From positions 49,786,001-49,850,000 of the forward strand of contig CM060734.1 of the NCBI GenBank assembly GCA_030704615.1: DNA of 64,000 bases, in the 5' to 3' direction. The position numbers and the translations under genes were made by a program. Shown here piece by piece: positions 15,058 to 58,680 of this stretch. Under the pieces are notes generated by a model. That model was given only the letters and a program-made list of their open reading frames with translations. It was not told the origin of the DNA and searched no databases. Within the stretch, counting starts at the first letter, position 1. Each line of letters begins with the position of its first letter. Source of the stretch: Takakia lepidozioides (Eukaryota; Plantae; Bryophyta).

Positions 15058-15059
15058 AG

Positions 15060-30038: not shown

Positions 30039-31040
30039 TTAGCTTCTCGTTTCTGCAGTCAATTGAGCATGAGTGTCGTTGAACTTGTACATAGTCCCCA
30101 GGGTGGAAATGCCAAACACCTGGCCAATATCCCCTCCGCGTATAGTGACATACCTCAATGTGTCTCGGTGTTGGGCAATAGCAAGATTCTCAAAAACCAT
30201 AGGCATGACTCTCTTAAACAACTCTGCCCGCTGGGCACATGCTTGTGTCCACATATCCGGATCATCAAGGTTGAGGACTACAACGGCCTCCCTGCGAATA
30301 GATGCAGGCAAATCCGGCTCTCGGCCAAAGAGAAGGAAATATGGTGAGAAGGAGGCAAGTGATGCTTGCTTGCTGAACCTGTAGCCCATGGCTAACCAAT
30401 GTACCTGAAGATCCCAATCTCCTAGGTGTCCCTTTTGCAAGCCATACTTGCGCAAACCCCTCTTCATTGTCTGAACCACTCTCTCTGCCAAGCCATCGGC
30501 CTCAGGATGATCCCGACAAGTGGTACGGTGGTCTATCAAGGCTTTATCACACAAAGCCTGAAACTCCCCCAAAAACTCTCTCCCTTGGTCCGTGAGTACC
30601 TCAGCTGGAGCACCGAATCGGCTAAGCACAGGATCCAGGAATGCATACGCAGCCCCCTCACTAGCCTTGTCAGGCAATGGAACCAACTCAATCCACTTGG
30701 AGAAGTGCTCTACCATCACCAACACATATCTGTGGTGACACATCGTCAGTGGCAAAGACCGTGCAAAGTCAAGACTCCACCTGTAGCCCAATCCCATGAT
30801 GGGTAAATGATGCAACTGTGGTGTAGGGGCGTTGAATGAAGCATGCACCCTGTCACACACCAAGCATCTAGCCACGAATTGTTGCACCTCTGTGTGCATA
30901 CCACGCCACCAATACTGCCCCTGCAGTAAACTATGAGTGTGTCGCATTCCAAAATGCCCCAACTCCTTATGGGCATGCCGTACTAACCGTGCACGCTGTG
31001 TTGGGTGAGGCACGATCCTCACCCGACCATCCTCCCACAC
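30039..31040 (-). CDS. Integrase (HHCC zinc finger plus DDE core)
   Basis: HKELGHFG..CLVC; WSLDF; EHFSKW; VLTDQGREF; HPEADGLAER; SPYFLLFGR. Confidence 0.92.
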   Translation of the reverse strand: MWEDGRVRIVPHPTQRARLVRHAHKELGHFGMRHTHSLLQGQYWWRGMHTEVQQFVARCLVCDRVHASFNAPTPQLHHLPIMGLGYRWSLDFARSLPLTMCHHRYVLVMVEHFSKWIELVPLPDKASEGAAYAFLDPVLSRFGAPAEVLTDQGREFLGEFQALCDKALIDHRTTCRDHPEADGLAERVVQTMKRGLRKYGLQKGHLGDWDLQVHWLAMGYRFSKQASLASFSPYFLLFGREPDLPASIRREAVVVLNLDDPDMWTQACAQRAELFKRVMPMVFENLAIAQHRDTLRYVTIRGGDIGQVFGISTLGTMYKFNDTHAQLTAETRS

Positions 31041-31718
31041 TCAAAGTAGGTGTATCCCCTCCCACTTGAACCTCTTGGCTCGTTGCAGGATCCAATCCCT
31101 CTCCTTGGCTGTCACACTAGCTGCCGTGTCTCCAGTGCGGAGGTAGTCCACCACAATCGAATCCTCATGTATATCTCTGGCACCACCTGGCTCATCACTA
31201 GCCTCAACTCCGTCTACAGTCATCCCTATTGTAGGTCCAACCTGACTTCCCGATGCCAAGATACACAAAAAAGTAGATGCATGTCATCTCGGCACCATCT
31301 CCTCGTCCGTCTCACCATGCCACCGAGCTCCAGTGTCATCCTGCTGGCTCGTGCATGGATTGCGACTCAATCCATCCGCATCCCTATTGACCAAACCCGG
31401 TTGATGCACAACCTGAACATGTCTCTCATGCTCATCCACCGTAACACGAGAGGCAAAGCAATTCCTGTAAGCCTCAGGAACCGCCGTATATGTCGTCTCT
31501 CTCCTCTAGTGACAATGGGTCCAATGTCAGGCTCCCAATTGCCCTTCGTAACTGCAACCTTAAGTCCAGCAGACTTAGAGGTAGAGGACGCGTCCCGTGG
31601 TTGCTATGCCGCAACCTCTTGAGCAGTACTCCCTACTTGCTCAGTCAATGACAAGGCCTCATCCTGCCCCATCATCTCATCCTTGAGGACCTCCTCAACC
31701 TAAGAAGAATCCCCAACC

Positions 31719-32981
31719 TCATCCATCACAGCCGCCTTGGCTGCCAACTCCCTCTAAACCTCGAGCACCTCCCACGTGTGCCATGGGATGTCTACACCCC
31801 GTGGTCTTCACCGGCTCGCCCCCACTCACTGCCTGTATCGTCTCGATAGGTAGAGAGACCGTCAAGGGAAGTGCACTCCGCACTCTACATTGCTCAGCCA
31901 TAGCCAACCTGATAATCCAGGTCAAGCAATTGAGATCCATTGCTTGCCCCAACACCTGACGACTTGATGCCTCTGAAAGAGAAGGCACCGCCGTGGTCCC
32001 AGTGGAAAAACCCATAGCCCGCTCTCGTTCGTCGGCATTAGGCTCCACTAACAGCTGCAACTGAGCATCCCACAGGAGGCTAGGTCCACTATCCCGGAAA
32101 GCATGCGATCCTGGGAAGCTGAGTAGTGTAGGTAGTGCTGCTCGTGGTTGACCCACCTTGTTGACCATTGCCAAAGGCAAACGGTCATCGTGTCTCACAT
32201 ACTGAGACTGCCTCCATGTGTCCAAAATGCTATCAACTGTGAGGTGTGCTGGCCGCTGCACCCCATCTAATGCATGCTTGAGCAGTGCAGGTGACATCAA
32301 GTTAGTCCACCATAACCGTGGACGATGAGCCCGTGACCCCACTACAGCTGCATCCAGCAACACTGCTGACCCAAGCCACGACCGGACTTGATGCACACTG
32401 GCCATCACCCTGGCCCGAGAATCGCCCATCAGTGGCACATTCTCCAAGATGTATGCTGAAGATATAGCCTGATGAAGCTGTAAGTGGCGCAAAACCCGCA
32501 CCATCTCCCAAAACAGACCCGACCTCGAGTTTCGCAATCCATTGCCATGCCCGGCTGATGAATGCCCTTGGCAGGGCCAACCTGCCACTACCAAATTAAT
32601 GGAGCCAATCCGCTCCAAATCCTGCGCCTCCAACAAGGAGATGTCTGCTGGCAAGGCCTGCTGATATCCACGAACCATAGACACCGGCAACAACTCAGGG
32701 TACTGCTGCACCAACTGAGTAACATGGCGTAGGGAGACGCATCGTGCAGTCTCATCCCTCTCCACATACAGGTAACGTCGTACTCGTACACCTGCCTGTA
32801 GAACAGCAGCCAACCCGGTGCTGATCCCGCCAAACAAGTCCAGAAGGCAAATGCCTTCATCCGGACACTGCCACACGATCGGTGTGGTGTCCAATGGTGA
32901 CAACTGAGGTGGTTTTGGTGTAATCCCCACACTGTCATCCTCTCCTGATGGTACAAAAGCCTCTACCCAGGCTTGTTGCAC
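31719..32981 (-). CDS. C5-cytosine DNA methyltransferase domain (DNMT3/DRM-like catalytic core) within the retroelement polyprotein
   Basis: Motif I LDLFGGI, motif IV AGWPCQGHS, motif VI ILENVP, motif VIII HRPRLWWTN, motif IX ERERAMGF, motif X VLGQAMD, all in one uninterrupted ORF. Confidence 0.92.
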   Translation of the reverse strand: MQQAWVEAFVPSGEDDSVGITPKPPQLSPLDTTPIVWQCPDEGICLLDLFGGISTGLAAVLQAGVRVRRYLYVERDETARCVSLRHVTQLVQQYPELLPVSMVRGYQQALPADISLLEAQDLERIGSINLVVAGWPCQGHSSAGHGNGLRNSRSGLFWEMVRVLRHLQLHQAISSAYILENVPLMGDSRARVMASVHQVRSWLGSAVLLDAAVVGSRAHRPRLWWTNLMSPALLKHALDGVQRPAHLTVDSILDTWRQSQYVRHDDRLPLAMVNKVGQPRAALPTLLSFPGSHAFRDSGPSLLWDAQLQLLVEPNADERERAMGFSTGTTAVPSLSEASSRQVLGQAMDLNCLTWIIRLAMAEQCRVRSALPLTVSLPIETIQAVSGGEPVKTTGCRHPMAHVGGARGLEGVGSQGGCDG

Positions 32982-33199
32982 ACGTCAATCAGCAACCCGC
33001 TGCAAATCCTTGCTCGAGCCCCACAATGGAGTGTGAGCAACCATGGCAGACAACTCTGCCATACCATACATGTCATCCTGCTCTCCCGGAGGTGACACAT
33101 CCTCTAAATGAGCGTTGCCCTCAAGCAACTCTCCAGGCCAACTCACTACAGCTGTGAATGCTGCCAGTGTTGGCATCTTGCCTCGCTGGGCAACCGTAA

Positions 33200-33620
33200 C
33201 TCCTCCTATGAATGTCACAGGGAACTACACACGCCGGCCCTCCCCTGACTGCCATCCAGGCCTATAGGAAGCTGACTCGTCCCAAAAATCCAGGGTGAAA
33301 CCCATGGGCTACAACACTGCCCCACCAACAAGGATATCGTACGAGACCGCGTCTGTCACAATGGCCTTGGCTCTCATCACCGAGCCATCTGTAGGATGAT
33401 TCGTTTGTAGTCGGATAGCCAACTCATGCCATGTCATGCCCCGAGCCTGCTCTGATCCTCCCAAAGATGTCTATATCTGGAAAAGGCACGGCTCCATATC
33501 CGCCTTCGTGAGGCCCAAGCTTGCAATAGCAGCTCTGCCCAACATCAATGGCTGAGCTCTCGAGTCCAACAAGACCCGCAGTGGCCAGTACCTCTTGCCA
33601 GCCGGTCCACTCAAACAGAA
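33200..33620 (-). pseudogene. Retropepsin-like aspartic protease of the DNMT element
   Basis: RVLLDSRAQPLMLG..SYDILVGG, in the same frame as the DNMT, with three TAG stops. Confidence 0.75.
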
Positions 33621-34411
33621 AATGTCATCCTGGTTGTCTAACATGACAACTCCAGGTGTCACTATGGCGCGCTCAATGGCTGGCCTAGCTGACAGCTTCA
33701 TCAACCTGGCAGCTGCAGCTTGCCATGGCGCCACCGTGGCAGTCTTGACCCTCACATCCGAGGATCCCTCCGGCACTACACCTCCCACTATCTCCGCAGA
33801 AGATGAAGTAACCTCCCCACTCTCACAGAGTGTAGCTGCCAGCCTGAACACCTCAGCTGGTCTTACCCCCGGCGTCGCAATCATGGTAACCGAGAACAAT
33901 GGAGCCTGACACACAGCTGTGGCCATCCCCAGCAACATACTAGCTGCCGTAGCCTTGGCAACACTAGGTAGTGGTACTGCCCGTGTAGCTCTCCCCAATG
34001 GCATAGTAACCTCCGCCTTGGTAACAGTCGGGCGAGAACTAGGTGCCATGGACGGCGTCGACACTGTCTCCGCCAATGTGAATGACTGAGGAAGCCTGGT
34101 CTGACGGCTTGCCTCCCCACGCTGTGGATCCAACTCCACCTCCGCACCCCGTGGCTCAGGAACTCGTGTTGTTTCTCGAGTCACTGCCGCAGCTGACTCC
34201 ACTTGCACTAGTGGTAGTCCTGCCCCGCACATAGTGGTAGTGGTGCCCCACCCACAGTGGTAGTGGTAGTGGTAGTGGCACCCCTTACTAGTGGTAGTGC
34301 TGCCCCGCACATGAATCCCATGCCTCCCATGTCTCCTCCCTCAGGAGCAGGAGGTGGACCATCCGGCCTTGGAGCCGGTACCACCTGAGCTGTGGCCATA
34401 GCAGCAAGCCT

Positions 34412-35773
34412 CTACTCTAGCTGCTGAAGCTGGTTAGCCATGCCTTGGTCACCACCCTGACCTCCGCGTCCTTGGCCATGTTGAGTTTGCCCTTGGCCTG
34501 CACCTCGTGCCTGGCCACCTTGTCCTCTCTGGGTTGCTCCACCTCGCCCCCGGCCATCATTGTTCCCTTGGAACTGGCCTGGGCGCAACTCAGGATGCAA
34601 ACCATAGCACTGGGCTTCTCCATGCCCGTACTTGCCACAATGCCCACACTGCAACTATGCAGGCTGTGCCGGTGCCAAACCATTGCCTCCCTCTGGGCAA
34701 TCCTTCTTGACATGGGGTCCTCCACATGTCCAGCACACCACATCCGCCCGTTGTTGGCTTGCAAATGAAGGGATAGACCCCTACATCTGAGGTCTTCTCT
34801 CTCCTTCCCTGGGCTTCACCTAAGCTCCCTTGTTGCCTTGAGCACGTTGAGATAGTGGCTAGCTAGGAGCATGACCACTACCCCGTGGTGCCTCCTTAGC
34901 AAATCCTACCATGACCACTCGTTCCTCCACCATGTTGAGCTCTATCCGCTCTGCCAGCAAAAACACATTTGCTAAGGTGGGTTGGGCTGCTTGTAGGAGA
35001 AATACATCCCACACCCTTCTCCTCAGCTCCTTGTCCAATATCCCATACCGGAATTGGACTGCCTGAGCCTCCGTAAACCCTTGGGTTACATTAATCAAGT
35101 GCCTCATGCAAGTGAAAGACTCCCTCAAGCTTTCAGTAGGCTTCCGTTGGAACTCTTGCAAGCTCCTCAACTTCTCTATCATCACTCCTTGGTAGTTCAT
35201 TCTCAACTCTTCGAAGAACTCCACAACAGGGTTGAAGGCAGGCACCGCCACTGGTGCTGGTGCAGCAATAACTTGGGTGGACGTCGTCGTTGCTGTACCA
35301 CTAGTCCCACTACTGCTCGTGGAAGCTGCTATTGCTGGTGCAGTTGCCAGTGTGGCTGTTGCCCTAGTGCCTCTAGTGCCTCTAGTGATGGAGACATAGT
35401 CAGGTGACCAGTACATCCTCCACTCCTCGATATCGTGCCCCCGCCTAAACTCATGGTAATCATCCATGGGCGGCCCTTCAAGGTGCTGAAACAGCCCCTT
35501 CCATGCCATGAAAGGCGTAAACAGTTGTGGATTGCGCATTTGCTGCAAGTCACACCAACTATCAAACTCTTGGATAAAATCATCCAACTCAATGGTGCCC
35601 ACCGCCCCAAAGTACCTTCGTGGCCCCTTGGTGGCTCCATACATCTCCTCCATTGTGTCCCACAACAATGGCAAGGAAACAACTTGCACTGCCGGTGTCA
35701 GTCCTCCTGATTCACAATCCGAATTAGAACCTTCCGTAGAAGACACAGGAGGTGAAGGTGGCCTAAACCGCAC
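34412..35773 (-). pseudogene. gag: Gag-like protein with CCHC knuckles of the DNMT element
   Basis: LDDFIQEFDSWCD.., LQEFQRKPTESLRE, CGHCGKYGHGEAQC, and a Q/G-rich tail. Confidence 0.7.
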
Positions 35774-38700
35774 ACCTCATCTCGTATACCCGCTAGTATC
35801 GCTGGTGCTCGTACCGGCACTTTCCCCAGCAACTAGTGGCACCTCCGTGTTGACAAACTGGCACTCAACCGGTCATGAACCTGTCTCTAACCACCTCTCT
35901 ACAAGGTAACCGGGTAGAGAACCTGATGCGGCTTATGGTCTGGAATACTAGGTTCCTAACATAGCCTGCACCTGCATCTGCATCCACCTCAGGCACTCCT
36001 ATGGTTGGCTGGTCATCACCTCCAACCTCACCACAGGAGAAACAAAGATGGTCTGACTGGTCATCAATCTAGCCTCACCATCGACAGCATGCTCTAGGGT
36101 GGGATCGGCGATCAAGCCCGAGTCCACCACCTATAAAATCAAGCGCCCACACAAAACTAGCATGGGGCACAATCAAGCATGCAGGTGTGGAGGGGATCCA
36201 AACACAAGAATGAAAACAACAACTCCCCCACACCAAAAATCTCTCCACAGTGTCGCTCCTGCAACCCAGCCCAAACCTGGATTGACTCTTGCCTCCACCT
36301 ACGGAAAAGTCTTGGCCTACAGAGAAGGTGGAAAGCTACGAGGAAGGGAAACTAAAGCAATGCCTATCCCTAGGACGCTCTCATCCCAACACCCTCTTTT
36401 TTTCCTCTCTTTTCTCACTTGCATGACCATGAGAGCATCCTGTAGACACTCCTCAAACCGCCCTCCACGAGCTCATGAAACTTGGCCTCCAAGGCCCCAT
36501 GCAAGCCTCCATAGGGTCCGCCAGTGCCTCCTCTTGTCCACCAGTCATTCCTCAGATTGGAACCACCTCAGGAAACCATGTCGTTCACTGAAGGTTCAAA
36601 GATGGAGCAAATAGAGTTACATATAGGCCCCAACAACATTCTGTCCAAAGGAATTACCTGCAGGCTGGTCTTCCCCATAGTTAAGAATTGGGCTGAAAAC
36701 CCGAAAAGATTACATGCAGGGAAGTAATCCCCTTTGTTAAAACGCAATAGGGAGGCAATTCCGACTTTTTTGCCGGATCAGCTAGCTCAAAACCGTTGTT
36801 CTTCAGAGCCCAGCCTCCCCATCAAGGTCCCACGAAACGAGTGATTTTTTTTTTTTTTTTTTTTTTTTTTTCACTCTTCCTGTTCGCGGCCTTCCGTGGC
36901 TCCAACCGCCACTACACCTCACGGCCCGCCCTAGGCGCTCGTTGGCCACGGGCTGCCTAGTGATACCCCGTGGTACCACTCCCACGAGCCTTCACGGCCC
37001 GCCATCCCCACGATCCGGTCACCGTGCCCACCCGTTGTGTCCGCACCACGACTTCCAACGGTCACGGTCAACCATCATGACCTGGGCTCGTGGTATCTCG
37101 TGATACCGCCCCAACGGCCCATCACGGCCATTATTCTCTGTTCCTTGAAACTCCCAATGAGTTCCCATGCGTTCCCGAGGCGTTCCCACGCGTTCCCGAG
37201 CTGGGGTTTGCTCCTGTACTTGCTGCCGATGAGCTATGGCTTCTGCAAAGCCATCAGCCCCATCGCCTTGCACTCTTGAGCTCTCACGGCCCACTAGAAG
37301 CACCCCTAGCTCAACAAGCAAGCCATATGCTGCCCAACAAGCTCCCTTTTCTCCATGAAGCTTACAAAAATAAATATGAAAATACACACATTTACAACCT
37401 TGGTGTACTTGCAGTTCTACTGCACATCCCCTAGCTCTAGGGCGCCTCGTTGCTGCCCTTCCAGCCCCGCTCTTGCCACTCCAAGAGCCCTTACACTACT
37501 GAGTTTCAGATTGAAACTCCAACTCAGCACATGTTTCACAAGTGCACTGATTTGCACACAAGAGGGACCAGCCCCCTCTCTTCACTCATACCTCTTCATG
37601 AGCTTGACGCTGAAGCTCCCAACGGGCTGCGATGCATCCCCTCGTAGCTCCACCATTCAGCTGCTCCTCATCTACCCGCAACAACTAGTTTCGGGCAGAA
37701 ATACCTGGAGTTCATCATGTCATCTCCAACCTGCAACACGCTAGTTTCCCATGCGCAGCCCACATTTCTGCAGCTCCTTAACTCGGCCTACAGCTGAAGA
37801 AGACGACCATCAGTTTGCCCACTCGTGGCCAACATCTCCTCCGCTTCACACTAGAAGCCCAAACTTGGTTGCCATAACGTTGAGCTATGCAACGCCGCTC
37901 TTCAACATAGGCTACCCGCCTCTCTATCCATGGCAAACCTGCAACATGTTCGCCTTTGCACTCTATCCGCTTTGGATAGGCTCATGCACGGCTCCCTGCA
38001 CTCTAGGTTGAACCGCTTCTCATGATCTGAAAACACAAGTGCTACAACTAACTTGAACCTGGCACTCACAGACTCGAGTTGATCTTTCTCGAGTGATAAG
38101 GAAATGAATGATACAAGCACACAAGCTTTCTCAAACTCACATACTTGCACATGAAAACATCATTCATATATTAAGTCGAGCCAAGTGCACCCCACGCCAT
38201 GGGGAATCCACACTACGGCGCCATAGCTAGACGCGTGAGGCTCAACTCGAGAAAGATGAGCCCACTGCGATCTGCCGTGAAGATAACAACGTCAGGTGCC
38301 CAAACATGTATTGGTCCCTGGATTGACACTTGGGTCAATCCCAAATGTCAATATATAAAAGCTAGCTATTTCCTAGCTAACTTCACACTAGTGGTAAAAT
38401 AACTTGACATATTCCTATACCTCTAGAAATATACTTAGGCACCTTTATATGAGATAATACGTTGAACAAAGAGTCATGGTAAGGGGGCTTGTTCAACTAT
38501 ACTATTTCATTAAATAATATAGCTATTGTTCATGTCCAGTTTGCATTTTTTTTTGGGGCCCTGCGGTCAAAGCCCGCTAAGTAGTAAGTAAAGTACTTAC
38601 AAATAGATGCTAAGAAGGAGGGCCTTTATCTCCCTTGAGGGCAGTGGGCCTGACCCTGTCAAGTGGCGGTGTTATCTTTAGAAGTGATAGACTTATTGAA

Positions 38701-41757: not shown

Positions 41758-42207
41758 CTAGCATAGGCGAACGTGCTCATAATCATCCTGATAATCAATG
41801 CAGGCACTTGTGACCCCGTTGACGGTCAGCATACCGTCAGCAACATTGTTGTCATTTGGATAGAAAAGTGGAATACTCCCACATGTGTAGCAACCGTAAT
41901 CTGCAAGTTCGTGAATTAAGGTCTTGATCGAGTAGCCGGGAGCGCCACTAGATTTTTGGCAGAAGACACAAAAGTTCCCATGATATCTAAAAGAGGCGCA
42001 TGCAATCTGTTCGTCATTGTTGTAAAAGCGATTTGGGTTGATATCGTCGATGACTTTCACCAACTTTTGTAGTACCGGTCCATAGTGTCAGGCTCTCCAA
42101 CAAAACATTTTGCCGCGACAGTTGATGCCGAGTGCCGCAACACCGCCTTGAATGCTCAAGGATATGAAAATGAGAACGGTGAGCACAAGTGATGATTGTA
42201 GTGCCAT
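41758..42207 (-). pseudogene. KP4: KP4 killer-toxin-like secreted Cys-rich protein with a single premature TGA (42088-42090)
   Basis: Signal-peptide-like MALQSSLVLTVLIFISLSIQGGVAA followed by LGINCRG, IAC, CVF.Q, GC..CGSIP and G.LTVN, which are the KP4 family hallmarks. Confidence 0.88.
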
Positions 42208-43000: not shown

Positions 43001-43412
43001 TTAGCATGGGTCAGCGTTATTGGCATTGTCATTATAATTGCAGCCAAAAGCGACCGCATTGACGGTCAACATCTCGTCAATAACATTGTTGTCTTGTGGA
43101 TAGAAAAGTGGAATACTCCCACAGAGTGATCTATAAGTTGTTGACTCAAGGTCTTCATCGAGTAGTCGGGAGTGCTGCCAGACGTTTTGCAGAAGAAAAA
43201 AAATGAATTGTTCCTTGAAAGCGCCACATGTAATTTATTTTCTATTGTTGTAAAAGCGATTGGGTTTGATATCGTTGATGACGGTCACCAACTATTGCAG
43301 TGCTCCATGGTTCCCTGCATTATATTCGGAGCTGCCGCGGCAATTGATGCCGAGTGCCTCTGTACCGCCTTGAATGCTCAAGTCTATGAGAATGAGAACG
43401 GTGAGCACAACT
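43001..43412 (-). pseudogene. KP4: Second tandem KP4-like pseudogene
   Basis: EALGINCRGS..NRFYNN..GSIPLFYPQDNNVIDEMLTVN; the ATG region is deleted relative to copy 1; stops and frameshift present. Confidence 0.85.
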
Positions 43413-44174
43413 GATGAAATGCAATGGTAAGACGAAGAAGTATTACGAGGAGGTCGCATGTGGTTGTTTGGTTGCGAGTCTGAATGATTCTGTTGCAACC
43501 ATCGAGCGGAGTCATGTATATACTTGGGATTAGGTTGTACAATAGTTGGTAGTAAAGCTATCAATGGAGGACTTTGATGTCCGCATAGATCAACAACCTT
43601 CTAAAAATCTTATTTTTGTTGATCTAAAAATACCAAAAATATTTGAAACCACAACAAGACAAAGAATACTATACATGTATCTGTATTTCTCAAGACTATC
43701 GTCTGGTTTGTTTGTTTTGTTTGTTTTTTCTGCTACGTTGAGATTTCCCAAACCACAGGGCCTCCCATTGAAGATGGATGCACCGCACGGATGCACAGGG
43801 GAGTCGCAAACCTCGACGGTTGCGATACGTTGCTGGCGCACATTCCCGCCCGCGCCTGTCAACAGTGGGCCATCGCAAACCCCCGCCTTTTGCAGTAGTG
43901 TCTCCCCGGAACTGAGAACATCAAAACCAAACACCAACAAGAGCTTGCAGCAGCACGAACTACATGCAACCGCGAGGTTACAATTTCTGACTTGGAGGAC
44001 GAGAAAAATGTTATTCTTCATCAGTACAACAACTGAGGTCCGTCGAACTGGCTGGGAACACAAATGGGAGAGGCAGATGGAAGCAACCCAGACAGTCCAG
44101 CAGATTTGGATGCAGAGAGAGAGAGACATCGGATAGTGGAGGACGAAATTCAAGTTCTCCAGCAGCAGCTCAAC

Positions 44175-44875
44175 ACAACCATATGCTCGTGGTGCCGCCA
44201 CTATGCTGGTGTGTGATCGATGCTCAAGAGGTTGGCACATGGGATGCTTGACACCAGCTCTTGAGAGGGTTCCTGATGGAGATTGGTTATGTCCACACTG
44301 CTTGGGATAGTGGCAGTGGATATGACTAGTGGCAGCTCACAAGACATGGGAGGCCAAGCTCATAGGAGTCAATACCCAAGATCTCAGGCTCAAGTTCACA
44401 GGTTGCAAGACGGCGACTAACGATGGGGCAACTCTTGTACCCAGCCTCTTGATCTATTGAGTTTGAGTGTAGTAGGGACAGTGGTGGAGGACTTAGTGAG
44501 GCTATGGCCACTATCAAATCTTGTGGCTACCTGGACTTAGAGGGACCTAAGCACCAGTTAGGGGGGCGATTGTGATGGGCTAGTGGCAGCCTAATGATGG
44601 ACTAGTGGCTGCACTAGTGGTGGCTAGTGGCAGCCTAGTGGTTGGACTAGTGGCTGTATTAGTGGTGGCTAGTGGCAGCCTAGTGGTTGACTAGTGGCTG
44701 CACTAATGGTGACTAGTGGTTGTCTAGTGGCAACCTAGTGGTGCACTAGTGATAGACTAGTGTTTGGTGTGCACATGTGTTGTGTGGTTTTGGACAACGA
44801 TGTAGTTGTGTAGCGATATGTATGCGCACGACAACTTTCAAGTTATTTTACCACTAGTGTGAAGTTAGCTAGAAA
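44175..44875 (+). mobile_element. 3' end of a PHD-finger Gypsy element: PHD, 3' UTR, PPT and the start of an LTR at 44571 with CTAGTGG tandem repeats
   Basis: MLVCDRCSRGWHMGCLTP..VPDGDWLCPHC*, then AGGGGGGCGAT|TGTGAT. 44839-44875 matches the reverse complement of 38370-38407. Confidence 0.8.
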
Positions 44876-47800
44876 AACAACACCATCCCTTATGGCGAAC
44901 CATCACGAAGACCCTCGATTCCCGGTGATGAGTCGCGATGAGTCTTGGCCCACCACCACGGCCCATTGGACCGTGATGAGTCCCAAGACTCCCCACGACT
45001 CCCACCACAAGGTCTCCGCCCCATGGTGAGTCCTATGTCACCTCCACTAAGACCCACTACGCTACCACCACCCCTCGTGGAACCACCCCCACCGCAACCC
45101 GGTGTGCGGGGCTCCACCTAGTGAGCGCCTCCGCCTCCTTGAGTGCCTTGGGCACTCAAGGGTGCTTCAGCCCCCGCACCTATTGTTGCCGCGCCCCCCA
45201 CCATAGGGGCAGCCCCTCTTGTGTCCTGACTTCCTGCCCTCAAGGCAAAGGGCCGCGACACACACCCCTACCAATAGGGAGTCAATGTCCTCATGGACTT
45301 GTCCATTTTGTAGAAACGAACATCCAAGTTGTGACGTCCCACATCAAGGAGTTTGTTTCCGCACCATGGCGTCCCATGGCTAAGAACCAAACTCCCACTT
45401 GACTCTACTCTCCACTAGCTAGTTCGGCCGACTTCCTCCAAGTCCCGGCCAAGGGTGGAGCCTCTCAAGCTCCTCCCAGTGCACTCTTCTTGACCCACTT
45501 CAGGGCCAAAGAACGATCCTCCCCGAGGATCGAATCGCCTTACTGCAACAACATTTACTTGCGACCGCTCGTGATGTCGCTTTTGGCATCACCTTGAGCA
45601 AGGGTTCACCTTGAACCCTTTTTGACTAGGAAGATAACCTTGAACCAATCGTGCGCCCCAATCACTACAATTGGGTCCGCCTTGGAATGTTGGCCTGAGG
45701 TACGAGAACATGCCGAAGCCGCACTACGGCTTCGTCCTGAGGCTACACGATTATAGTACATGAACAGAAGCACGTAGCTTCCGCGTTAGCCCGCACTACA
45801 AGGCAACCCCCTCGGTAGCGCAGTTATAGTATGCGCATGCGCCAGGTGCGCACTAGCACGTGAACTCCTAAAGAAGGCGCAAGTTTCCTTGTCCCTTGGA
45901 TGGGAGTGACCCGATTTTGGCACTGCGCAAACACACAATTAATCCAATTTACCTCTTCCACTTTTGTGAGCTAGCATGCATTCTACACACTAGCCAACCA
46001 TACCATGCATCACCATTCCAACAAAATAGGAAGCACAATATTTGGGAACCATTTCATTTATACCAAAATTTGTACAATACAGTTTTGCAATCGGATTCCT
46101 GAGCTAGCTAAGCCGGGCTAAGCATGCATTTCCTCCCCCACGCTCCAAGGTTGATGTCCCCATCAACGCTTCTTCCGCTTTTGAGGTCGCCCTTCGAAAA
46201 CTGCAACCGCCTCGGATGCATTCCCCATTTCTGAGGCACGCACCCAAGATGCCTCCACATGATGATAACCCTTCCATTTCACGAGATACTCCAATTTCTT
46301 GATTCTTGAACCTCCTCGACTAAAGCACTGCCTCCACCTCGTACTCAGGTTCATTTTCATGATCCAACAGCAGAGGTGGCGGACGCAACACTTGAGGCCG
46401 ATTCGGACGCGCTTCATCTTTGAAGTAAGGCTTCAAAAGGGAAACGTGGAATACCGGATGCACTTTGCTGTTTGGCGGCAGCTCCAACTCATACACGTCC
46501 TCATTCATAACCTTCTGGATGCGAAAGGGTCCCGCATACGGAGGTACGAACTTCGGACTCACTTCCGGAGGTAGTCGAAAATTCTTGATGTTCAACCAGA
46601 CCTCCGTGCCTGCCTCAAACTTGACTTCCCTCCGTTTTCGATTTGCTTGCCGTTCATACCGTTTCCTAGCTTTGGCGATGTTGTACTTTGCGAGCTTCAA
46701 CAAGCGCTCGCGTTCCTCCAACACCGCTGCTGCTGCCGGTTCCTCTACGTCTTGGGCGGCCCAACTTGTCGGCACTAGAGGTGCTTTTCCATAGACCAAT
46801 ACAAAAGGGGAAACACCTGTTGCAGAGTGTTTTGTGTTATTATAACAGAACTCTGCCGCGTCCAAGTGCTCCACCCAGTCCGATTGGCCAAAAATACTCT
46901 TTCTTCAAGAGTGCCGCGGTGCGTTTGGCTCCGCCATGGCCCACAAGCGGGCCATCATGGCATTCTCTCAAGAGACTATCTCTGATCCATCCCTTCGACA
47001 CATAGAGACATTTTTGCTTATACCGGAGCAGTCCATTTTGCAAGTGGAACTGCGATTTAACCCCATCCTCAAGTCCCGCATCACGGACTTCGTCATCTCA
47101 TCCTTCCGGTAAGCCTTCCGGATCTTCCTTTAGAGCGCCGTCTCGCCCCTGTATACCATCATGAGCTGCTGCTTTCTATTTAAAGCATCGGCCACCACAT
47201 TGTCCCGTCCCGGTTTGTACTGGATATCCACGTCGAACAGTGCCAAAGTGTCTTGCCACCTAATTTGTTTTTGGGACAACTTAGGTTGCGTGGCAAAATA
47301 CTTCACCGTGACATTGTCTGTGAACACCTTCACCGGGTTGGAACCAATATAGTGGTGCCAAAGCTCAAGGCAATGCACCACCACCTTCATTTCTTTCTCG
47401 TGCATAGGCCACCGTCGCTCCACTTCATTCAGTTTCTTACTTTCGTAAGCCACTGGACGTCCATCCTGCATGAGTACACCCCCAATTGCGAAGTCGGACG
47501 CATCTGTATGAATCTCAAATGGACGGTCGAATTCCGGGATTTTGAGGACTGGAGCTTCCGCCATCCGCTGCTTCAACTCAGCAAAAGCTTGGCCACAAAA
47601 TGTGTTCCATACCCAGACTTTGGATTTACACAGAAGGTCTGATAGCGGCCCCGCGATCTTGGCGAAATTTCTCACATACTTACGGTAGTAGGAGGCGAGT
47701 GCTAGGAAGGATCGCACTCCCGGGACCGAAGTCGGAGGCTCCCAGTCCAAGATCGTCCTCACCTTTCTGTCATCCATTTTTATCCCATCCTGTGTAATCA

Positions 47801-50800
47801 CATGCCCCATGCACTCCACTTTTGTGACCCCGAATTCGCACTTTGAAGCTTTGGCATACAGCTTCCTTTCTTGCAATTTCTGGAACACCCTTTTTAGGTG
47901 CTCCAGGTGCTTTTCCTTTGTTTTCGAGTACACCAAGATGTCGTCGATGTACACGATCACAAAGTCATCCAACCACTCCTGGAAAAGGCTGTTCATTAGC
48001 GTGCTAAAGATCGCGGGTGCGTTGGTGAGCCCAAAAGGCATCACCAAGAACTCATATGAACCATACCTTGTCATGCACGCGGTCTTCTCCTCGTCTCCTT
48101 CTGCCACTCGAATTTGATGGTAGCCGGAGCGCAAATCGATCCGGCTGAAATACTTCGCTCCTGCCAACCGATCAAAAAGGTCGTCGATCCTTGGCAAAGG
48201 GTACCGATTTTTGATAGTCACCTTATTTAGAGCCCTGTAATCGACACACATCCGCAGCGTCCCATCCTTCTTGTCTGCGAATAGCACCGGGGCTCCGTAA
48301 GGTGACTTACTCGGCCGGATGTACCCCTTTGACATTAGATCCTTGAGCTGAGTCTTCAGCTCGACCAACTCTCTGTGGCTCAACCGTAGGGTGCCTTGGC
48401 AGCGGCTCCGATCCCGGTATCACCTCAATCTTGTGGTCAACTCCTCTTCACGGTGGCAAGCCGCTTGGTAAGTCCTCCGGCATCACATCCTGGTATTTCT
48501 CCAAAATCCCCTTGATCCAATCTGGGCTCGGTTCCCTATCGCCTTCTCCCTTCACTTGTCTTACATAAAGCAAAAACTGGGGCTCGTGTGATTCCTCCAC
48601 GGCCCACTCCTTTGATGTCAGAAAGTTTATTCGCCCTCCCACGGGGTTGGGCGTTTCCGACACTCGTAAAACTTCGCCACCATTCCCACACGGTAGCGTA
48701 ACTACTCTTTTGCGGCTATCTATGACCGCCCCGGATCTGCTCAAAAAGATCATCCCCAAAATGAGATCTACTCCATCGATCTCGCAAATGGTGAAGTTGT
48801 CACGTCCCTCCCAACTCCCCAGTTGAAGAGGAACATCGAGCGCCAACCTCGTCGCCAATTGTGGTTCTTCTTTGGCAGAACGCACCTCAATAGAGGCCCT
48901 CACATCACTTGTCGGGAGCTTCCGTGCCGTTGCTGGCGTCATGAAGGAGTGCGACGCTCCTGTGTCCACCAACAACGACACGTTAGTTCCGGAGATTATC
49001 CCACTCACAAACATTAATTGACTCCCTTTACGCAAGGCGCCAGTTTCCTGATACAACTCACAAGAGTAGTTGCCTACCTTGCAAGTCTTGGCGACCACTG
49101 CCTCCACCAAGCGGCTAATGGAATCCTCGGACAACTCCGTGGTTGCCCGAGTCATGTTTAATTGTCGGGGTTTCGCGCACTATTTTGCCATATGCCCGGG
49201 TTCCCCACAATTAAAGCACACTCCATCGAAGGTCGCCTTCTGCCCGCCATAAGCCGCCGCACCTGGTTTTCCTTTCGGGGCACCGGGTGCCGTCTTGACG
49301 TGTGAGGGTCTTCCCTTCGATTTCCATGTGCTATTGTCGCCGCGTGGCCTATCCCACTTCTTTTCCGGTCGGAAGGAGTCACCCTCCCGCCAGGTCTTCT
49401 TGTGGTTCAGCTCCGTACGGCCTTGTCTTTCGCCCCTAGGGACATCCGAGAAGCATTCAACCCTCTCAATTGTCTTGTTCAAAGTCTTTGGTGGCTTCTC
49501 CTCCAACTTCCGCCTGGTCCATGGGGCCAGTCCTGCCACAAAGTTGAAGACCATTTCTTTTCTGGTTTCTGCCATGTCCGCGACTTTGAGCAACAGCACA
49601 TTGAAAGCCTGAACATATCCCCGAATGTCATCTGTTTGCTTCAAATTCCTCATCTTGTTCCGGGCGAGCCAAGACGTGTTGAGGGGCACAAACTATCTCT
49701 TCATCAGTTCTTTGAACCCACTATAGTCCAAGGTTTCCGGGCTTGGACCTCGGTCGTGAAGGCGTTTCTGCCACCATTGTTGAGCATAGCCCCTTAAATA
49801 GGTGGGAGCCACTTCCACCCGATCCTCGTCACTCAACTTGGCCGCCCGGAAGTACTACTCTAGCTCCAAGAGCCAGGTGTTGAGTGCCTTCCGATTTCGG
49901 ACGCCCTCGAAGGTGCCGGGTTCCTTAGGCTTCACCTTAAACTTGCCTTAGTGGAAGTAGCATTAGCCGCCTTCAACACGTCTTTCAACGTCCCGCCAAA
50001 CTGCGCCAACAACCCTTTCCAAAAGGCTGCTGGCATGGGGGGCATCTGTTGGTCTGTCGGAGCTCTTAGGAATTCCTCGGGCTTTGACTCCTCAGATTCC
50101 TCCCATTCTTGAGCAGCCTCGTTTTCAAAAGCATGCATCGCTTCCTCAAATGGCCGCTTTGGTGACACGTCGCCCCCATCGGGCCCACTAGGATCATCGT
50201 CTTTCGGGCCGTTCCGCTTTCGCTTTGGCTTGCCCGATCCCATGATGAGGCCGATCCCAAGGACGATCGCGTACTGAACTCTAGGCTCTGATACCAAGTG
50301 TCGCGCACCTCACTTCGGTAAGCTCCCCCTTCAAGTCATAGTTACTCGCTTTGATGCGCGCGCCTAACTCCCAATCTGGCCGCCGGGCCAACTCGGAGCT
50401 TCGGCTGCTCACCGGGACATAACAGTCCCCCTTTCTTTCCCCAACAGACCCTCCACCGATTTGGGCCTAGTGGAAATTCCATTTGGTAGATGGCAGTCCG
50501 GAATAGCTCCCCACTCCTTGGTCGCTTTCCGGCTCGCTCGCTTACTCACTAGATTTTGGTCACCAACGGGCTTGGACCGTTCTCGGGGTTACTACTGCCT
50601 ATATATACTTCTGTGATTGTCCGCGGGGGTTCCACAAACAACACCATCCTTTTATGGCGAACCACCACGAAGACCCTCGATTCCCGGTGATGAGTCGCGG
50701 TGAGTCTTGGCCCACCCACCACGGCCCCATTGGACCGTGATGAGTCCCAAGACTCCCCACGACTCCCACCACAAGGTCTCCGCCCCATGGTGAGTCCTAT

Positions 50801-50993
50801 GCCACCCCCACTAAGACCCACTACGCTACCACCACCCCCACCGCAACCCGGTGTGCGGGGCTCCACCTAGTGAGCGCCTCCGCCTCCTTGAGTGCCTTGG
50901 GCACTCAAGGGTGCTTCAGCCCCCGCACCTATTGTTGCCGCTGCCCCCACCATAGGGGCAGCCCCTCTTGTGTCCTGACTTCCTGCCCTCAAG
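44875..50993 (-). mobile_element. Chromovirus copy B (same family as copy A), both LTRs truncated, integrase core deleted
   Basis: LTR parts at 44875-45260 and 50299-50993; PBS TGGTATCAGAG; intact RT-RNase H ORF 47130-48383; chromodomain near 46163-46345; deletion near 46880. Confidence 0.93.
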
Positions 50994-53440: not shown

Positions 53441-53456
53441 TGAGTAAGGTAGGTTG

Positions 53457-53690
53457 TGTCGCAGCCCTTTGCCTAGAGGGCGAGGGGTCGGGACACAAGA
53501 GCTGTGGCGGGGGCAGCGGCAGCGAATCGGGATAGGGGCCGAAACGGAGGCGTTCGCTACTTAGGTGGAGCCCTGCCAACCGGGTTGCGGTGGGGGGGCT
53601 CCATGTGGGGTAGTGGTAGCGTAGGGAGTCGTAGTGGGGGTGGCATAGGACTCACCACGAGGCCGAGGCTTTGTGGTGGGAGTTGACGAG
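53457..53690 (+). repeat. Partial LTR related to chromovirus A/B, on the plus strand
   Basis: ggtaggttg|tgtcgcagccctttgcc... is a diverged reverse complement of about 9500-9768. Confidence 0.8.
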
Positions 53691-54312
53691 CCTCGCCGCG
53701 CGCACAATAACCGCGGGGAAAACGAAGGCGAACGTCGATCCGGGGGCTGGAGTTCGGCGATGAGGTAGGCTGGGCTCAAGAACCGCTCAACCGTGAAGTG
53801 TGTCGCTAAGCTTGGCGGAGGGTCAGTGGTCGATTGAGGGACCACCTCCCGCTATCCTAAACTACCAGCAAACGCAGGTTTCAACTTCTACGCTTACGGG
53901 GCAAAATTTGTTTGTGTCTCCTACGGAATCTACTCCTAGCTAATTGTCTTCCAAGACTTCTTTATTAGAGTTAACACGGCTTCACCCCGGAGCCATTGGT
54001 GCCTCCGGAAGATCCTCTTCACCTGGATTGACTGCTGCCGGAAGCGTTAAGGGCTAGCTGCTTAGGTCTGGGTTGCTCCACCAATACGCACCCCCGGATC
54101 ACACGTGTGTGCAAAGGGGTCATCTACATTCCCGCTATCCGAAGGGGAGAGCACACCCTAGTCTAGCAAAAAAACTCTTTACTTGGACAATATCTCATTT
54201 TTCCATTAGCTGCTAGGGCCCTTGGCTATTTTCTAGCACTAGATATTGACAAAAAAAATGGAAAAAATACTATCATAGGCAGGCCACGATAATTAGAAAT
54301 AGAGATAAAAAC

Positions 54313-54821
54313 CAGTGTTGGACTGGTATCAAGTTTTTTACATACCAGTCTGATCCTGGTACCAGGCGTATCACAAAGTTTTCATACCAGTCTGGTCTAT
54401 ATAATGGTGGATGTATATTTGTCCAAATATTGGTATGAGTATGAGTATCATGACCACAATACTAGCTGGTATGAGGTATCAACTCTGGTATCATTCTTTA
54501 TGTGTATTGTATTTATTTTCACTTGATATTTGCTATTTGATAAACTTGTAATTTAAGATGGCTTTAGAAGTAAATATACATAAATACAAATGTATAGACA
54601 AATGAACATATAAATTAATATGGTACACATACCAGAGTAAATGAGGAAGACTGCGGGGGAGTACTGGTATTGTGGCTGGTATGAAAAAACTGATACCAGC
54701 CTGGTCTGGTATATGACCAAGTATTCTCCCAAATGATACGAGACGGGTCTGGTATCTAATACCAGTGCATAGACCAGTACTTTATACCAGTCCTTCACCT
54801 ATATATACCAGTCCAACACTG
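54313..54821. mobile_element. hAT-type MITE
   Basis: 17-bp TIR CAGTGTTGGACTGGTAT; 8-bp TSD ATAAAAAC at 54305-54312 and 54822-54829; internal ctggta/taccag repeats. Confidence 0.93.
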
Positions 54822-55126
54822 ATAAAAACCCTAGATTTAATTACCTCTATTCCTATTTTCTGGTGATTTTCTAAACAGAAAACCCACGTCAAAATTAATT
54901 ACTGAGGCTGGAAATTCACTAATTCTAGAAAAATAGGCATAAGGTAGGAATTCATCTAAGCTTTCCAATGACCCATGGCTTGGCCTCTAGATAATTCTGT
55001 AACCCCCTCTCATTGCCCAAAAACCATTATCAAGATGTGGGACCATAGGGAATTGGTCTAATAGGTCCACACAACCCCCTAAGCCCTTAATACATAGCCC
55101 CTAGCCTCTAGATCTCAGGTTCAAAC

Positions 55127-55857
55127 CAGTGTTGGTCGGGTATAGCACTTTATCCCGGTTAGTAGGTATACACAACCGCAAGGTATTTTTACAAAACAGA
55201 GCAAATAGATAACCGACGGTTGGGAGGTGAGTATATATATGTATATGTACCCTATATTAAGGTTAGCACTACATTAGTAAGGCGTTTTGACCACCCCTAG
55301 AGCGGTTACAATATAGGACACGCCTCCTCACACAACGCAACTGCATTGATTGCCTGCATGCCTAGATTGGCAACTTTTGCAAGAGGTGCAAAAGGTGCGC
55401 TCAATATGTATAACTTATGGCTATGTTAAATGTTAGCCAACTCCTCTCTTTGGTTTTTTTTTCTTTTTCTTACTTTAATCATTTTTTTGCCATTGTGGAT
55501 AAATCTCTCATGTACTTGGAGCATTCTAGCATTACCTATTTATTACTCATATTTATTAAAGGTTCTCATCTTCATTTGGATGTCATGTGGGAATTGATTA
55601 TTTTTAACGAAAATCATTGAGAAATACAAGTGCATATATGTAACCGCCAATTGCATATATATATCTGCCAATTTTAGGACACCTCTAACCGTCCTATTCA
55701 TAACCGTCTAAATTTGAAGAATTTTGTAGAATAGATAACCGGTGGATATATTAAAATAAAAAAATTTATCCTTATACATAACCATGGAGTGTGTCCATCC
55801 CAAAAATATTGACCTTAACCGGCGGATATGTAAAATTCTTATAACCGGCCAACACTG
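55127..55857. mobile_element. hAT-type MITE
   Basis: TIR CAGTGTTGG(T/C)CGG; 8-bp TSD GTTCAAAC at 55119-55126 and 55858-55865. Confidence 0.92.
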
Positions 55858-57319
55858 GTTCAAACCCCCCTAGAGCTAAAATGACTTGTTAAAACATCAG
55901 ATGAAAAACTGCATTTATCATCCACTGGTCATCTACCGTTCATCTTTACAACGGATGAAAAACTGCATTTATCATTCTGCCTTCATCCATCCTTCATCCA
56001 TCCTGCGAATGAAATACTGCTTATCTCATCCATCCATGTCTAACCATCCACTATTCCACATTCCTCAAAAAACGCTCTCAATATGAATAATATATTTTGG
56101 TGGGTCCGCTGTTGGTTCCTCTTACCTAAGTGCATTTTAAGGCTGGGTGCAACCGAAGATGACTCTCTCTCCCACTTCCCTCCCAAAAGCTTTGTATACT
56201 TATCGTTGGCTTTTTGTGAGCAAGGTGTCTCAGTGTGAGCCGAACGGACGATTCCTGAGCTGACTACCTATGACATACCAAAACGAAGGCCTCGAAGACC
56301 TTCACCCTCCATTCAAATTTCCAACCCAGCCACTAAGGAAGCAACATCTCAAAACTCCCTCAATCGAAAGAATCATTCAAAAAGTATTTTCCTACCTAAG
56401 ACCCCCCCTTAATCCATTACCCACTGGTCCGTTCCATCCTGGTTACCCGCTGGTCGCAGAGCAGTGTGGCAAGGCGCTGTAGGACGAGGCGATGAACCAC
56501 TGGTTGCGGCCGCTCGGGTAAAGTGACGGACCGATGGGTAAAGCGACGGACCGCTGGATAAAGCCAGAGAGCACTTAGGTGGCCAGCACGGCCTAACCCC
56601 CCGCAGGGCTGCTGTCGAGCAGCTTGGGTGCTGGGGTGGTCAACACCTCGAGTTCCGCGGGGCCTGCAGCCCGCTTCAAACCAATAGCCAGCTCCTGGCT
56701 ATTGCCATGATATCCCCTTTATGGCGCCTCACTTTTGGGAACCCAATCCATGGTCTTTTGCCTTCACCTAAAAAAACAAGAAAATAAACCCCAAGCTAAC
56801 CCCAAGCTAACCCCAAAGGGCTAGCCTAATCTTCCCAAGGGTTAGCTATGGTCCTCCATAGCTTAACCAAGCTAGGGAGGCCATATTAGATCTGATTTTT
56901 GATCTGTAAATTAGTTATGCATGAAAAATAAATTTCCAGCGACAAAATAAACTTGAAAAAAAATCAAAACTTTGCTAGCTCTTCCACCTTGCTCCTCTCC
57001 TATGGGGGGTTGATATGCTTAACAAGAGACAAATAAATGGCAAGTCTAGAGGGCTCAGTGCACACTAAGCTACACTCATATGCGCCAAATGAAATGAAAT
57101 AAAAAACAAAAGAAGATTTCCCTCTAAGCTCTATGCAAGCATCTATCTAATATTAGTGGGTTAGCTTCCCTTGCATGCCTAGTTAGCTTCACGCATGAAA
57201 ATAAGGCCTAGTGGCCAACAAAAAAAAGAACCCACATCCCACTTAGATATCCCACTGCATGGTCAGCTCTCTAGGGATTAGATCTTTCCACTCTTAAGCC
57301 AAAAGACAAAACATAGATA

Positions 57320-58680
57320 AAAATGACAACTGCTTGGGCTTGTCGTGCACCTAAGCATCGTGCCACAACATACATCGCTTGCAACCACACTTCCTAGCAT
57401 CTAATCCTCGAAAGTCATTCCACAATGATACGGAAATGGTGAAAAGAGGTGAACCCACTCTATCACGTTTATAAGTCAAGCCAATGGCACCTTTACTAAA
57501 GGACTCCACCATACAGACCTCACACACTCTCCATCTCAATACCTAGAGCTATGGCGGCGAGAGAGGCCTCGGAAGGCTCGACTAGAAGAAGACGAGCCTG
57601 CCTACGTCTCACGTGGAGATAACCTCTCCATGTCCCAAATGAGGTTCGTCATCTCACTTGGCACATGGAACCAAATGAAGTCCCAATGCCAACAAAATAC
57701 AAATATAAATGTATAATGTCCTAATTAGTTAGAAATAACTATTTCTAACTAATCACAAACAAAACCATGACAACTGTTGTGCACCTAAGCATCGTGCCAC
57801 AACATACATCGCTGTCCAACCACACTTCATAGCATATAATCCTAGAAAGTCATGTTACAATCGCCCCCCTAGCTGGTGATTAGGTCCCTCTAATACCAGA
57901 TAGCTTGCAAGTATCCACCCGAATAAGGTCATCATTTGGTCTCCAATCGCACAAGTCTCAGCATTTGAAGTCGATAGATCAAGAGGCCAGTGCACAAGGA
58001 GCCCCATCGTTAGTCGCCTTCATGCAATCCATGATCTTCAGTTGAGTATCCACGACATTGAAGCCCCACTAGCTAGACCTTGGATCACTTGTCAATCTCA
58101 CCATTGTCATGCCCACTACCTCTGTCCAATGCATCGTGGACATAACCAATCTCCAATATGAACCTTCTTAAGTGGTGGTGTCAAGCATCCCACGTGCCAC
58201 CCCCTTGAGCATCTATCAAACACCAATATGGTTGCGGCACCACCACCATGCCCATATAGCATGCAACGCAACCATGCAGGTACCACTGCAAGGTTGGGAT
58301 CTATCCTCCCATCACACATGTGGAAGATGACATGGCGCACAATTGTGCACATGGTCCTTCCATACCGTGCCATCTCGACCCTCCATAATCAACACTCCTG
58401 AAGGCAACACCTCCCTGACCCTTAGAATCACACGTCCTGCTGTGACATGTGACATCCAATGTTGTAGGCGCTGTCTACTGCAGATACACATAGTCCCCAA
58501 GGTGGAAACGCCGAACACCTGGCCGATATACCCTTCCACGTATAGTGACATACCTCAATGTAGGTCGTAATCCATGCACAAGCAAGCACGATGATACTGG
58601 AGCTCGGTGATATAGTGAGACGGATGACGAGATGGTGCCAGGATGACATGCGTCTGTTTTTTTGTGCATTCTAGCAATGA
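57320..58680 (-). mobile_element. 3' fragment of the DNMT/PHD Gypsy family: integrase C-terminus, PHD, PPT and LTR starting at 57859; 58563-58680 is inverted
   Basis: LRYVTIRG..FHLGDYVY matches 30085-30165; DRCSRGWHVGCLTPPL..GDWLCPRC; the same PPT as at 44560; a direct repeat of about 75 bp at 57345 and 57779. Confidence 0.82.

Follow-up and report, generated by a model that had tools for sequence, protein, structure and literature searches.

The 64-kb window analyzed here, the whole stretch from 49,786,001 to 49,850,000 of Takakia lepidozioides contig CM060734.1, holds five dead, broken pieces of a Gypsy-DNMT3 retrotransposon family similar to KnitGypsy-Dnmt3, and no complete copy. The domain order of the family is almost certainly gag-protease (PR)-DNA methyltransferase (DNMT)-reverse transcriptase (RT)-RNase H (RH)-integrase (IN)-SH3-PHD; within the window, DNMT and PHD never occur together in any one copy. 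This domain content is ordinary for the family. The new features are an amber stop between DNMT and RT, the mode of priming, and integrated ends that appear to derive from an internal junction. On balance we favor a model in which a PHD-tethered integrase and a self-methylating DNMT act on end-joined cDNA that is cut at an internal palindromic junction.

The order gag-PR-DNMT-RT-RH-IN-PHD, proposed in a preliminary description of this DNA, was seen in relatives. Related loci were the best 80 of 162 from one scan of metagenome contigs; about 63 were distinct and most came from one subfamily. Both DNMT and PHD were present in 22 of the 24 loci with at least 4.2 kb upstream and at least 450 bases downstream of the integrase, or 20/22 once near-copies were merged. 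DNMT was found in 30 of the 33 loci with enough upstream DNA and in every protease-bearing locus (32/32), and a PHD lay within 700 bases in 59 of the 62 loci with enough downstream DNA. Out of 269 integrase relatives, 110 of the best 120 matched PF00628; a single open reading frame (ORF) encoded DNMT, integrase and PHD together in 51 of 172 retrieved proteins. The intact locus L027 consists of two ORFs of 1369 and 1047 codons in the same frame, with a single TAG between them and all domains present. The case that had been named against the linkage, a DNMT-less subfamily owning the PHD ends, did not appear among close relatives, where the exceptions examined were deletions: the 5' repeat joined straight to late RT in L053 and L056, and the PHD lost through an internal deletion in L062. 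L005 was without gag, PR and DNMT alike. Weighing against a strict linkage, no DNMT could be detected in protein P0121, which reads PR-RT-RH-IN-PHD; across the wider clade the two domains are thus not always paired. The DNMT domains of P0153 and P0169 were degenerate.

Copy A lies on the minus strand. Its likely 5' end is a repeat B of 316 bp (38094..38409) that begins TGTC and ends TATCA. The assignment to copy A was inferred from position and strand; its first 39 bp share 97% identity with the start of B in copy C, and identity to copy E is 76%. Adjoining it is a primer-binding site (PBS) of self-priming type (38082..38093), a 12-nt perfect complement to a site inside B at 38257-38246; 0/2000 shuffles reached 12 nt. 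A broken gag-like region at 34577..35776 gave a 55% tblastn match to residues 1-357 of Marchantia protein P0001 and no Pfam match. The gag-protease linker and aspartic protease (33234..34340) retained an LLDSRA motif and contained in-frame stops; the corresponding region of L027 matched Asp_protease_2 (2e-4). The ORF of the DNMT3-like C5 cytosine methyltransferase spans 31722..32984 (PF00145, 2e-11), with best named matches to Marchantia polymorpha proteins (54-66%), and is followed by the amber stop (31598..31606). A deletion junction at 31430..31470 marks the loss of RT and most of RNase H (residues 695-1095 of P0007 were unmatched). The RNase H tail, linker and DDE integrase, with its H2C2 zinc finger (PF17921, 6.5e-15) and rve core (PF00665, 4.9e-13), occupy 30089..31430. 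Across 57% of its length, the integrase shares 81% identity with a Calypogeia fissa protein; identity to the chromoviruses present in the window is only 25-30%. Copy A is truncated at 30089, at the start of the SH3-like tail, so that its own SH3-PHD end is lost; beyond the cut are 165 unrelated bases and then the long terminal repeat (LTR) of another element.

The preliminary description had reported that this integrase tail recurs at copy B and runs on there into a PHD finger, a polypurine tract (PPT) and an LTR. The recurrence was confirmed: 30089-30161 and 58488-58561, both on the minus strand, are 90.5% identical over 74 bp. When the 74-bp tails were compared with the 80 related loci (BLAST, E<1e-3), the A tail had no match and the B tail had one at 70%, so the A-B match stands well above the family background. 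In neither copy could the peptide LRYVTIRG..FH(P/L)GDYV be read without crossing a frameshift. The PHD and PPT of copy B were also borne out, and the supposed LTR proved to be a split repeat A-B-A'. The integrase tail, SH3-like domain and PHD (~58265-58128) of copy B span 58128..58567 on the minus strand; they are frameshifted and match residues 448-591 of P0057 at 52-84% in three frames. The PPT, TAGGGGGGCGA, occurs once per strand in the window, at 57871-57861 on the minus strand in copy B and at 44559-44569 on the plus strand in copy C. The split right-hand repeat of copy B (57341..57860) comprises A (57860-57775), a spacer GT, B (57772-57426) and A' (57425-57341), which ends in GACA; A and A' are ~90% identical and the junction reads ACA-GT-TGTC. 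A second PHD-PPT-LTR end had been placed near 44175-44875. Here too the PHD (1.1e-10) and PPT stood and the ordinary LTR did not. This end is copy C, on the plus strand (44140..44876), with a partial PHD (44188-44304), the PPT, a repeat A with a tandem expansion, and the start of B. Its junction at 44830 is GACA-AC-TTTC, its B start is interrupted by a chromovirus LTR, and it is 77% identical to copy B over 374 aligned bases. The PF00628 matches were 58119-58388(-) at 1.8e-6 and 44140-44307(+) at 1.1e-10. Both PHDs are damaged: one first-pair Cys is changed to Tyr in copy B, and the first pair is out of frame in copy C.

Copy E, on the plus strand, is a 5' repeat B with its PBS (63588..63961) that continues past the window edge. 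Its B (63588-63943) begins TGTC. The 18-nt complement inside B forms a stem in the RNA fold (z -6.9) in which one base pair is altered on both sides relative to the priming stem of copy A. Beside copy B, inverted family fragments on the plus strand (58545..58968) include the RNase H tail and integrase linker (58545-58754, 85% to copy A over 106 bp) and the pre-RT linker (58880-58968, 67%). The 58545-58754 piece was rejected as colinear support for copy B because of its inverted orientation. Copy B was likewise rejected as the displaced 3' end of copy A, since the flanking 4-mers, AATA and AGCC, differ.

In copy A, the TAG at 31606 is in frame from DNMT to RT and is followed by CAA CCA. L027 reads TAG CAG TTA, and L030 reads TAG CAA TCA at the same break. 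UAG-CAR-YYA is the leaky stop context of the tobacco mosaic virus type. The exact CAR-YYA context was found in L027, L030 and copy A, and follows only 25 of the 11,166 TAGs in the loci. A looser TAG-CAR-YYN lay within 300 bases upstream of 30/40 RT starts; against the generality of the context, 26 of these 30 matches were CAA-CCC, not CAR-YYA, and belonged to one subfamily. Judged from this context, RT-RH-IN-PHD is very probably made by readthrough of the amber stop. The stop leaves DNMT in frame with Gag, and IN-PHD would be reached only by readthrough. Because the two domains lie on opposite sides of the stop, with RT and RNase H between them, they are likely to be different mature proteins present in different amounts. 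In this lineage the reader and the methyltransferase do not share one stop-free ORF; in proteins with the layout RT-RH-DNMT-IN-PHD they do. The Klebsormidium nitens protein P0050 has no stop between DNMT and RT.

The DNMT3-related C5 methyltransferase lies within the pol region, in frame between PR and RT. The best PDB match of the copy A domain was DNMT3A (1e-8), ahead of DNMT3B, DRM2 and M.HhaI. Motifs I (32843), IV (GWPC, 32582), VI (ENV, 32444), VIII (32327) and X (31949) were located in copy A, and nearly all of 81 aligned domains likewise retain the catalytic motifs, the catalytic Cys being present in 34/37 and 43/44. The observed/expected ratio of CpG across codon boundaries was 0.31 in copy A and 0.35 in L027; three LTR elements of the window that have no DNMT gave 0.79, 0.79 and 0.84, and GpC was ~1 in all compared sequences. 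This depletion is consistent with self-methylation. The text of de Mendoza 2018 (PMC5890265) proposed cDNA self-methylation by the KnitGypsy DNMT, and we think it probable that the predicted activity of the present enzyme is also directed at the element's own cDNA. Two observations weigh against this. CpG was also low in the long interspersed nuclear element (LINE) and DNA transposon of the window (0.57 and 0.59) and in the intact L030 (0.58), so host methylation and age could also account for the loss. In addition, the isolated KnitGypsy DNMT produced no methylation in yeast, a result that its authors, in the text of their paper, call inconclusive (PMC5890265). A Gag-level DNMT set by the amber stop would make the 2018 self-methylation hypothesis testable in particles.

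A structure model of the L027 integrase tail (mean pLDDT 70, pTM 0.42) contained a β-barrel at residues 23-90 followed by the PHD. The barrel matched a foamy virus integrase chain with Z 6.4, a middling value common to many SH3/Tudor folds. For the modeled PHD, the best matches were the ORC1b PHD with unmodified H3 (Z 8.7, root-mean-square deviation 1.5, 52 aligned), the ATXR5 PHD with H3 (Z 8.6, 1.5, 52 aligned) and DPF2 (Z 8.4), which were tied. Sequence matches were led by CHD4, PHF12, PHF21A, KDM5 PHD1, KAT6A, ATXR5, DPF3 and UHRF1. A Gly two residues ahead of the zinc-binding His was found in 107/111 PHDs, at a position that we take to correspond to the cage Trp of H3K4me3 readers, and an Asp follows the third Cys in 105/111. 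By likeness only, in sequence and in the model, the PHD thus appears to resemble readers of unmethylated H3, of the H3K4me0 type. A point on the other side is that the acidic residue ahead of the first Cys is not fixed, with Asp at -3 in 41/111. As the preliminary description had it, the PHD occupies the chromodomain position; it follows the SH3-like barrel at the integrase C-terminus. ORF2 of L027 has no Chromo match, and the PHD is present there. The PHD is predicted, with reasonable likelihood, to tether the integrase to histone H3 tails, and would be expected to steer insertion away from active promoters. PHD-guided insertion has already been proposed in the text on Chlamydomonas Gypsy-7a_cRei (PMC9940879), and fusions of PHDs with transposons are described as common (10.1101/2021.11.30.470311; PMC8557442, in the text consulted).

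The ends of the family are split repeats, B...PPT-A-B-A' or B...A, not ordinary LTRs. After the PPT the 3' order is A (~85-115 bp; 264 in copy C), the palindromic GACA-nn-TGTC, B (~340 bp) and then A again. At the 5' end B stands alone, and the termini are TGTC...GACA. On the 3' side the loci gave 20 ABA, 24 A-only and 4 AB groups, the AB ones being truncated or carrying deletions; on the 5' side, 16 ends had a single B. In the window, copy B has the ABA form, and 38409 and 63588 are 5' B ends. An exact 4-bp target duplication was present in 5/8 two-ended calls and in 5/6 with both termini intact, in both 3' forms. The flanking 4-mers showed no obvious sequence rule, which bears neither way on histone targeting. 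The PBS complements measured 12 nt in copy A, 18 in copy E and 16 in both L007 and L009. A tRNA-type PBS was ruled out, there being no TGG after B. Two results detract from this picture. L051 is a true duplication miss despite its intact ends (the other two misses had no intact terminus), and a perfect PBS complement of at least 9 nt was kept in only 4 of 13 locus PBS sites. L027 had no tyrosine recombinase match; its two long ORFs include the rve integrase, and its remaining ORFs are below 170 codons.

The PPT adjoins A and the PBS adjoins B, which makes A-start and B-end the ends produced by RT; the integrated ends are B-start and A-end. Within 12 copies, A and A' shared 20 rare letters, compared with 10.8 in permuted pairs (9/2000 reached 20). 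No differences between A and A' were fixed, and the A-A' divergence (0.06-0.09) was close to that of B-B' (0.07-0.09) in three copies. Because A' tracks its own A and the RT ends differ from the integrated ends, B would have to join a fresh copy of A before insertion. For insertion from end-joined cDNA, with the DDE integrase using the internal palindromic junction, we judge the case to be evenly balanced. A simple symmetric two-LTR circle was disfavored, as B-A-B was seen at 0/16 5' ends. The same count indicates that the choice of junction is directional, and this tells against our scheme. Inserted bases were observed at the B|A' joint of L011 (10830-10860) and L006 (near 3050), and the L011/L014 insert ends with the last PPT bases; such insertions are as expected of end-joining scars.

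Alternatively, the ends might arise by a route like that of DIRS and PAT elements, in which A' would be inherited through RNA and the internal A|B junction would only template both termini, with no end-joining. This route accounts for the occurrence of B...A.B.A' and the absence of B.A.B...A, and the layout matches the A-coding-B-A-B DIRS elements mentioned in the text of PMC5890265. It is at odds with the positions of PPT and PBS, which fix A-start and B-end as the RT ends, with the tracking of each copy's own A by A', the first 15 bases included, and with the few B|A' joints that carry insertions (L011/L014 and L006). We regard it as doubtful.

Doubt of a stronger kind attaches to a coupled reader-writer, in which the PHD would bring DNMT to H3K4me0 chromatin so that the insertion and its flanks are methylated on arrival, in the manner of an ADD domain. 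The preliminary description had drawn this analogy with the ADD/PHD-methyltransferase arrangement of DNMT3; both domains do belong to the family, and the analogy is weak in this lineage. The two domains co-occur in nearly all relatives, the PHD is like H3K4me0 readers, and a DNMT-IN-PHD chain is possible in the RT-RH-DNMT-IN-PHD layout. In the window's lineage, however, the amber stop, RT and RNase H come between them, and the separation of a Gag-side DNMT from a readthrough-side IN-PHD is the main reason for doubting a coupled module here. Members of the wider family also carry DNMT at either of two sites, which suggests that its placement with respect to the PHD is immaterial, and a PHD exists with no DNMT, in P0121 and in the published domain list of Gypsy-7a_cRei. 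Coupling of this kind thus seems unlikely. A similarly low probability applies to a PHD that serves the integrase tail as a zinc module with a structural or chaperone-like role, or that binds a non-histone host protein, with H3 marks having no part in steering insertion. The lack of an invariant acidic residue for H3K4 would suit this reading. Against it, the zinc ligands (all eight, except two of the first pair's neighbors) and the Trp core are invariant in a 16-row alignment, the nearest solved folds are H3-bound PHDs, and the domain takes the place of a chromodomain after the SH3-like barrel.

Under the end-joining model with a histone-reading PHD, the amber codon would mostly terminate translation to give abundant Gag-PR-DNMT, and occasional readthrough would supply RT-RH-IN-PHD. 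The 5' end of the RNA, inside B, would prime the minus strand as in Tf1, and the PPT would prime the plus strand, yielding a linear A.B-internal-A.B. DNMT in the particle would methylate CG sites of this cDNA. The right end of B would then be joined to a copy of A via a circle, a dimer or a template jump. Integrase would take its ends from GACA-nn-TGTC, the left end always from the left junction, to give B...A.B.A' or B...A with a 4-bp duplication. Finally, the PHD, bound to unmethylated H3 N-termini, would make insertion at H3K4me3 promoters less frequent. Reader and writer would share a particle but be distinct proteins, with no allosteric pairing of the DNMT3 kind.

The wider family has two layouts. 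DNMT precedes RT in the clade of copy A and the Klebsormidium protein P0050. In an integrase tree (FastTree), copy A, P0050 and all five DNMT-before-RT rows fell in a 51-row clade with SH-like support of 98 and no bootstrap. The order RT-RH-DNMT-IN-PHD is found in proteins outside that clade, whose named members are chlorophytes (Pleodorina, Haematococcus, Volvox); here DNMT lies 108-314 residues ahead of the integrase in a single ORF. In these proteins, among P0035-P0172 (e.g. P0118, P0148 and P0160), GWEC is frequent as motif IV and GRC as motif X. A tree of the DNMT domains largely agrees with the split, with weak support (84-87, quick search), P0039 being an exception. From these sequences, DNMT may have been relocated once or captured twice. 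An IMG/VR scan with P0061 found no relatives.

A DNMT3-bearing Gypsy and a PHD-bearing algal Gypsy are already known separately in print. REM1 of Chlamydomonas reportedly has its PHD in a separate antisense ORF, together with a chromodomain. Chromoviruses such as Tcn1, Tf1 and MAGGY share with the present family a histone-reader module at the integrase C-terminus; they differ from it in that our family has a PHD for the chromodomain, a DNMT and split repeats. Tcn1 and Tf1 also share self-priming, according to the text available (PMC6317226, PMC4600332). PAT, Ngaro and SymbioDIRS elements share the A-coding-B-A-B split direct repeats. They use a tyrosine recombinase, whereas the window family has a DDE integrase, PPT, PBS and 4-bp duplications; in the text of PMC3266345, DIRS1-type integration involves no target duplication. 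As described in the text consulted for foamy virus and HIV-1 (PMC2884000), a DDE integrase can cleave an internal palindromic LTR-LTR junction. There it is a side activity on circles, whereas the present family seems to draw both of its integrated ends regularly from the junction.

The closest relative in print is KnitGypsy-Dnmt3 of K. nitens, whose published text (PMC5890265) describes a DNMT3-like domain before RT in a Gypsy pol, catalytic motifs and DIRS-like repeats. Its integrase falls in the same supported clade through P0050, and proteins 75-79% identical to the P0050 integrase end in a PHD. The window family differs as a land-plant lineage with an in-frame amber stop. The legend of Fig. 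4c in that paper remarks on the DIRS-like layout; neither 'target site' nor 'PHD' appears in its text, and the text and three supplements yielded nothing on the PHD, on target duplications, on the palindromic junction, on the B...A form or on self-priming, although a figure may show the PHD. The name Gypsy-DNMT3 is from de Mendoza 2018 and is also used in the text of bioRxiv 10.64898/2026.05.21.726589. The Gypsy-7a_cRei text shares a PHD in a green-lineage Gypsy polyprotein, proposed to avoid harmful insertions, but its published domain list has no DNMT (PMC9940879). EpiLTRs, in the text of 10.64898/2026.05.21.726589, likewise combine a DNA methylation writer and a histone reader in one retrotransposon, but with DAM, a DNMT4-related enzyme and a chromodomain, in Euglena and C. 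tetramitiformis, in contrast to the DNMT3-like enzyme and PHD here. The searched text of a plant LTR classification paper contains neither 'PHD' nor 'methyltransferase' (PMC6317226), and that of PMC12344493 only cites the 2018 DNMT work. Across the literature text covered, DNMT with PHD in one element, the amber stop and junction-derived termini were undescribed; they may appear in figures, subscription papers, Repbase, a cited thesis or the supplements of preprints (notably the fusion table of 10.1101/2021.11.30.470311), which lay outside this scope.

The window as a whole is a transposon-dense stretch of a plant genome. Two copies of a chromovirus with SH3 and chromodomain, ~91% identical, lie at 9038-15793 and 44875-50993 (-), with LTR pairs 98.5% and 93% alike; the second interrupts the B repeat of copy C. 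Another Gypsy (gag, protease, LTR) at 27847-29923 and a related LTR copy at 58977-59610 (-) both adjoin pieces of the DNMT family. A non-LTR element at 16900-23000 (-) has an RT at 19292-20074 and a downstream chromodomain match at 17344-18309 (PF00385, 6e-6); strand skew is extreme at 18-24 kb, and decayed PPR-repeat sequence (24395-26828, -) adjoins the element. A Kp4-family ORF (PF09044, 4e-26) at 41761-42087 (-), with a second copy at ~43031-43669 that is ~76% identical, resembles the killer-toxin genes of fungi although it lies in a plant genome. The ORFs at 60354-63589 (-) are DNA-transposon-like and include a SWIM finger; copy E, whose TGTC end is at 63588, interrupts them. A palindromic 42-bp tandem array at 59925-60175 forms a long imperfect inverted repeat.

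Within an old and widespread clade of the green lineage, the pairing of writer with reader is the norm, and it is therefore less surprising than the preliminary description held. Because the terminal repeat is absent from B...A copies and displaced in B...ABA copies, structure-based LTR finders are likely to miss or mis-bound the family in bryophytes. We advance only tentatively the view that this Gypsy clade has rewired the retroviral cycle, with a leaky stop, pre-methylation by a Gag-level DNMT3, joined ends and PHD-guided insertion from the junction. End-joined cDNA has long been regarded as a retroviral dead end. Junction-derived termini with target duplications would show a DDE integrase routinely using such cDNA. 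If true, this would be a eukaryotic DDE retroelement with end-joined DNA as its normal substrate, bridging LTR and DIRS/PAT integration.

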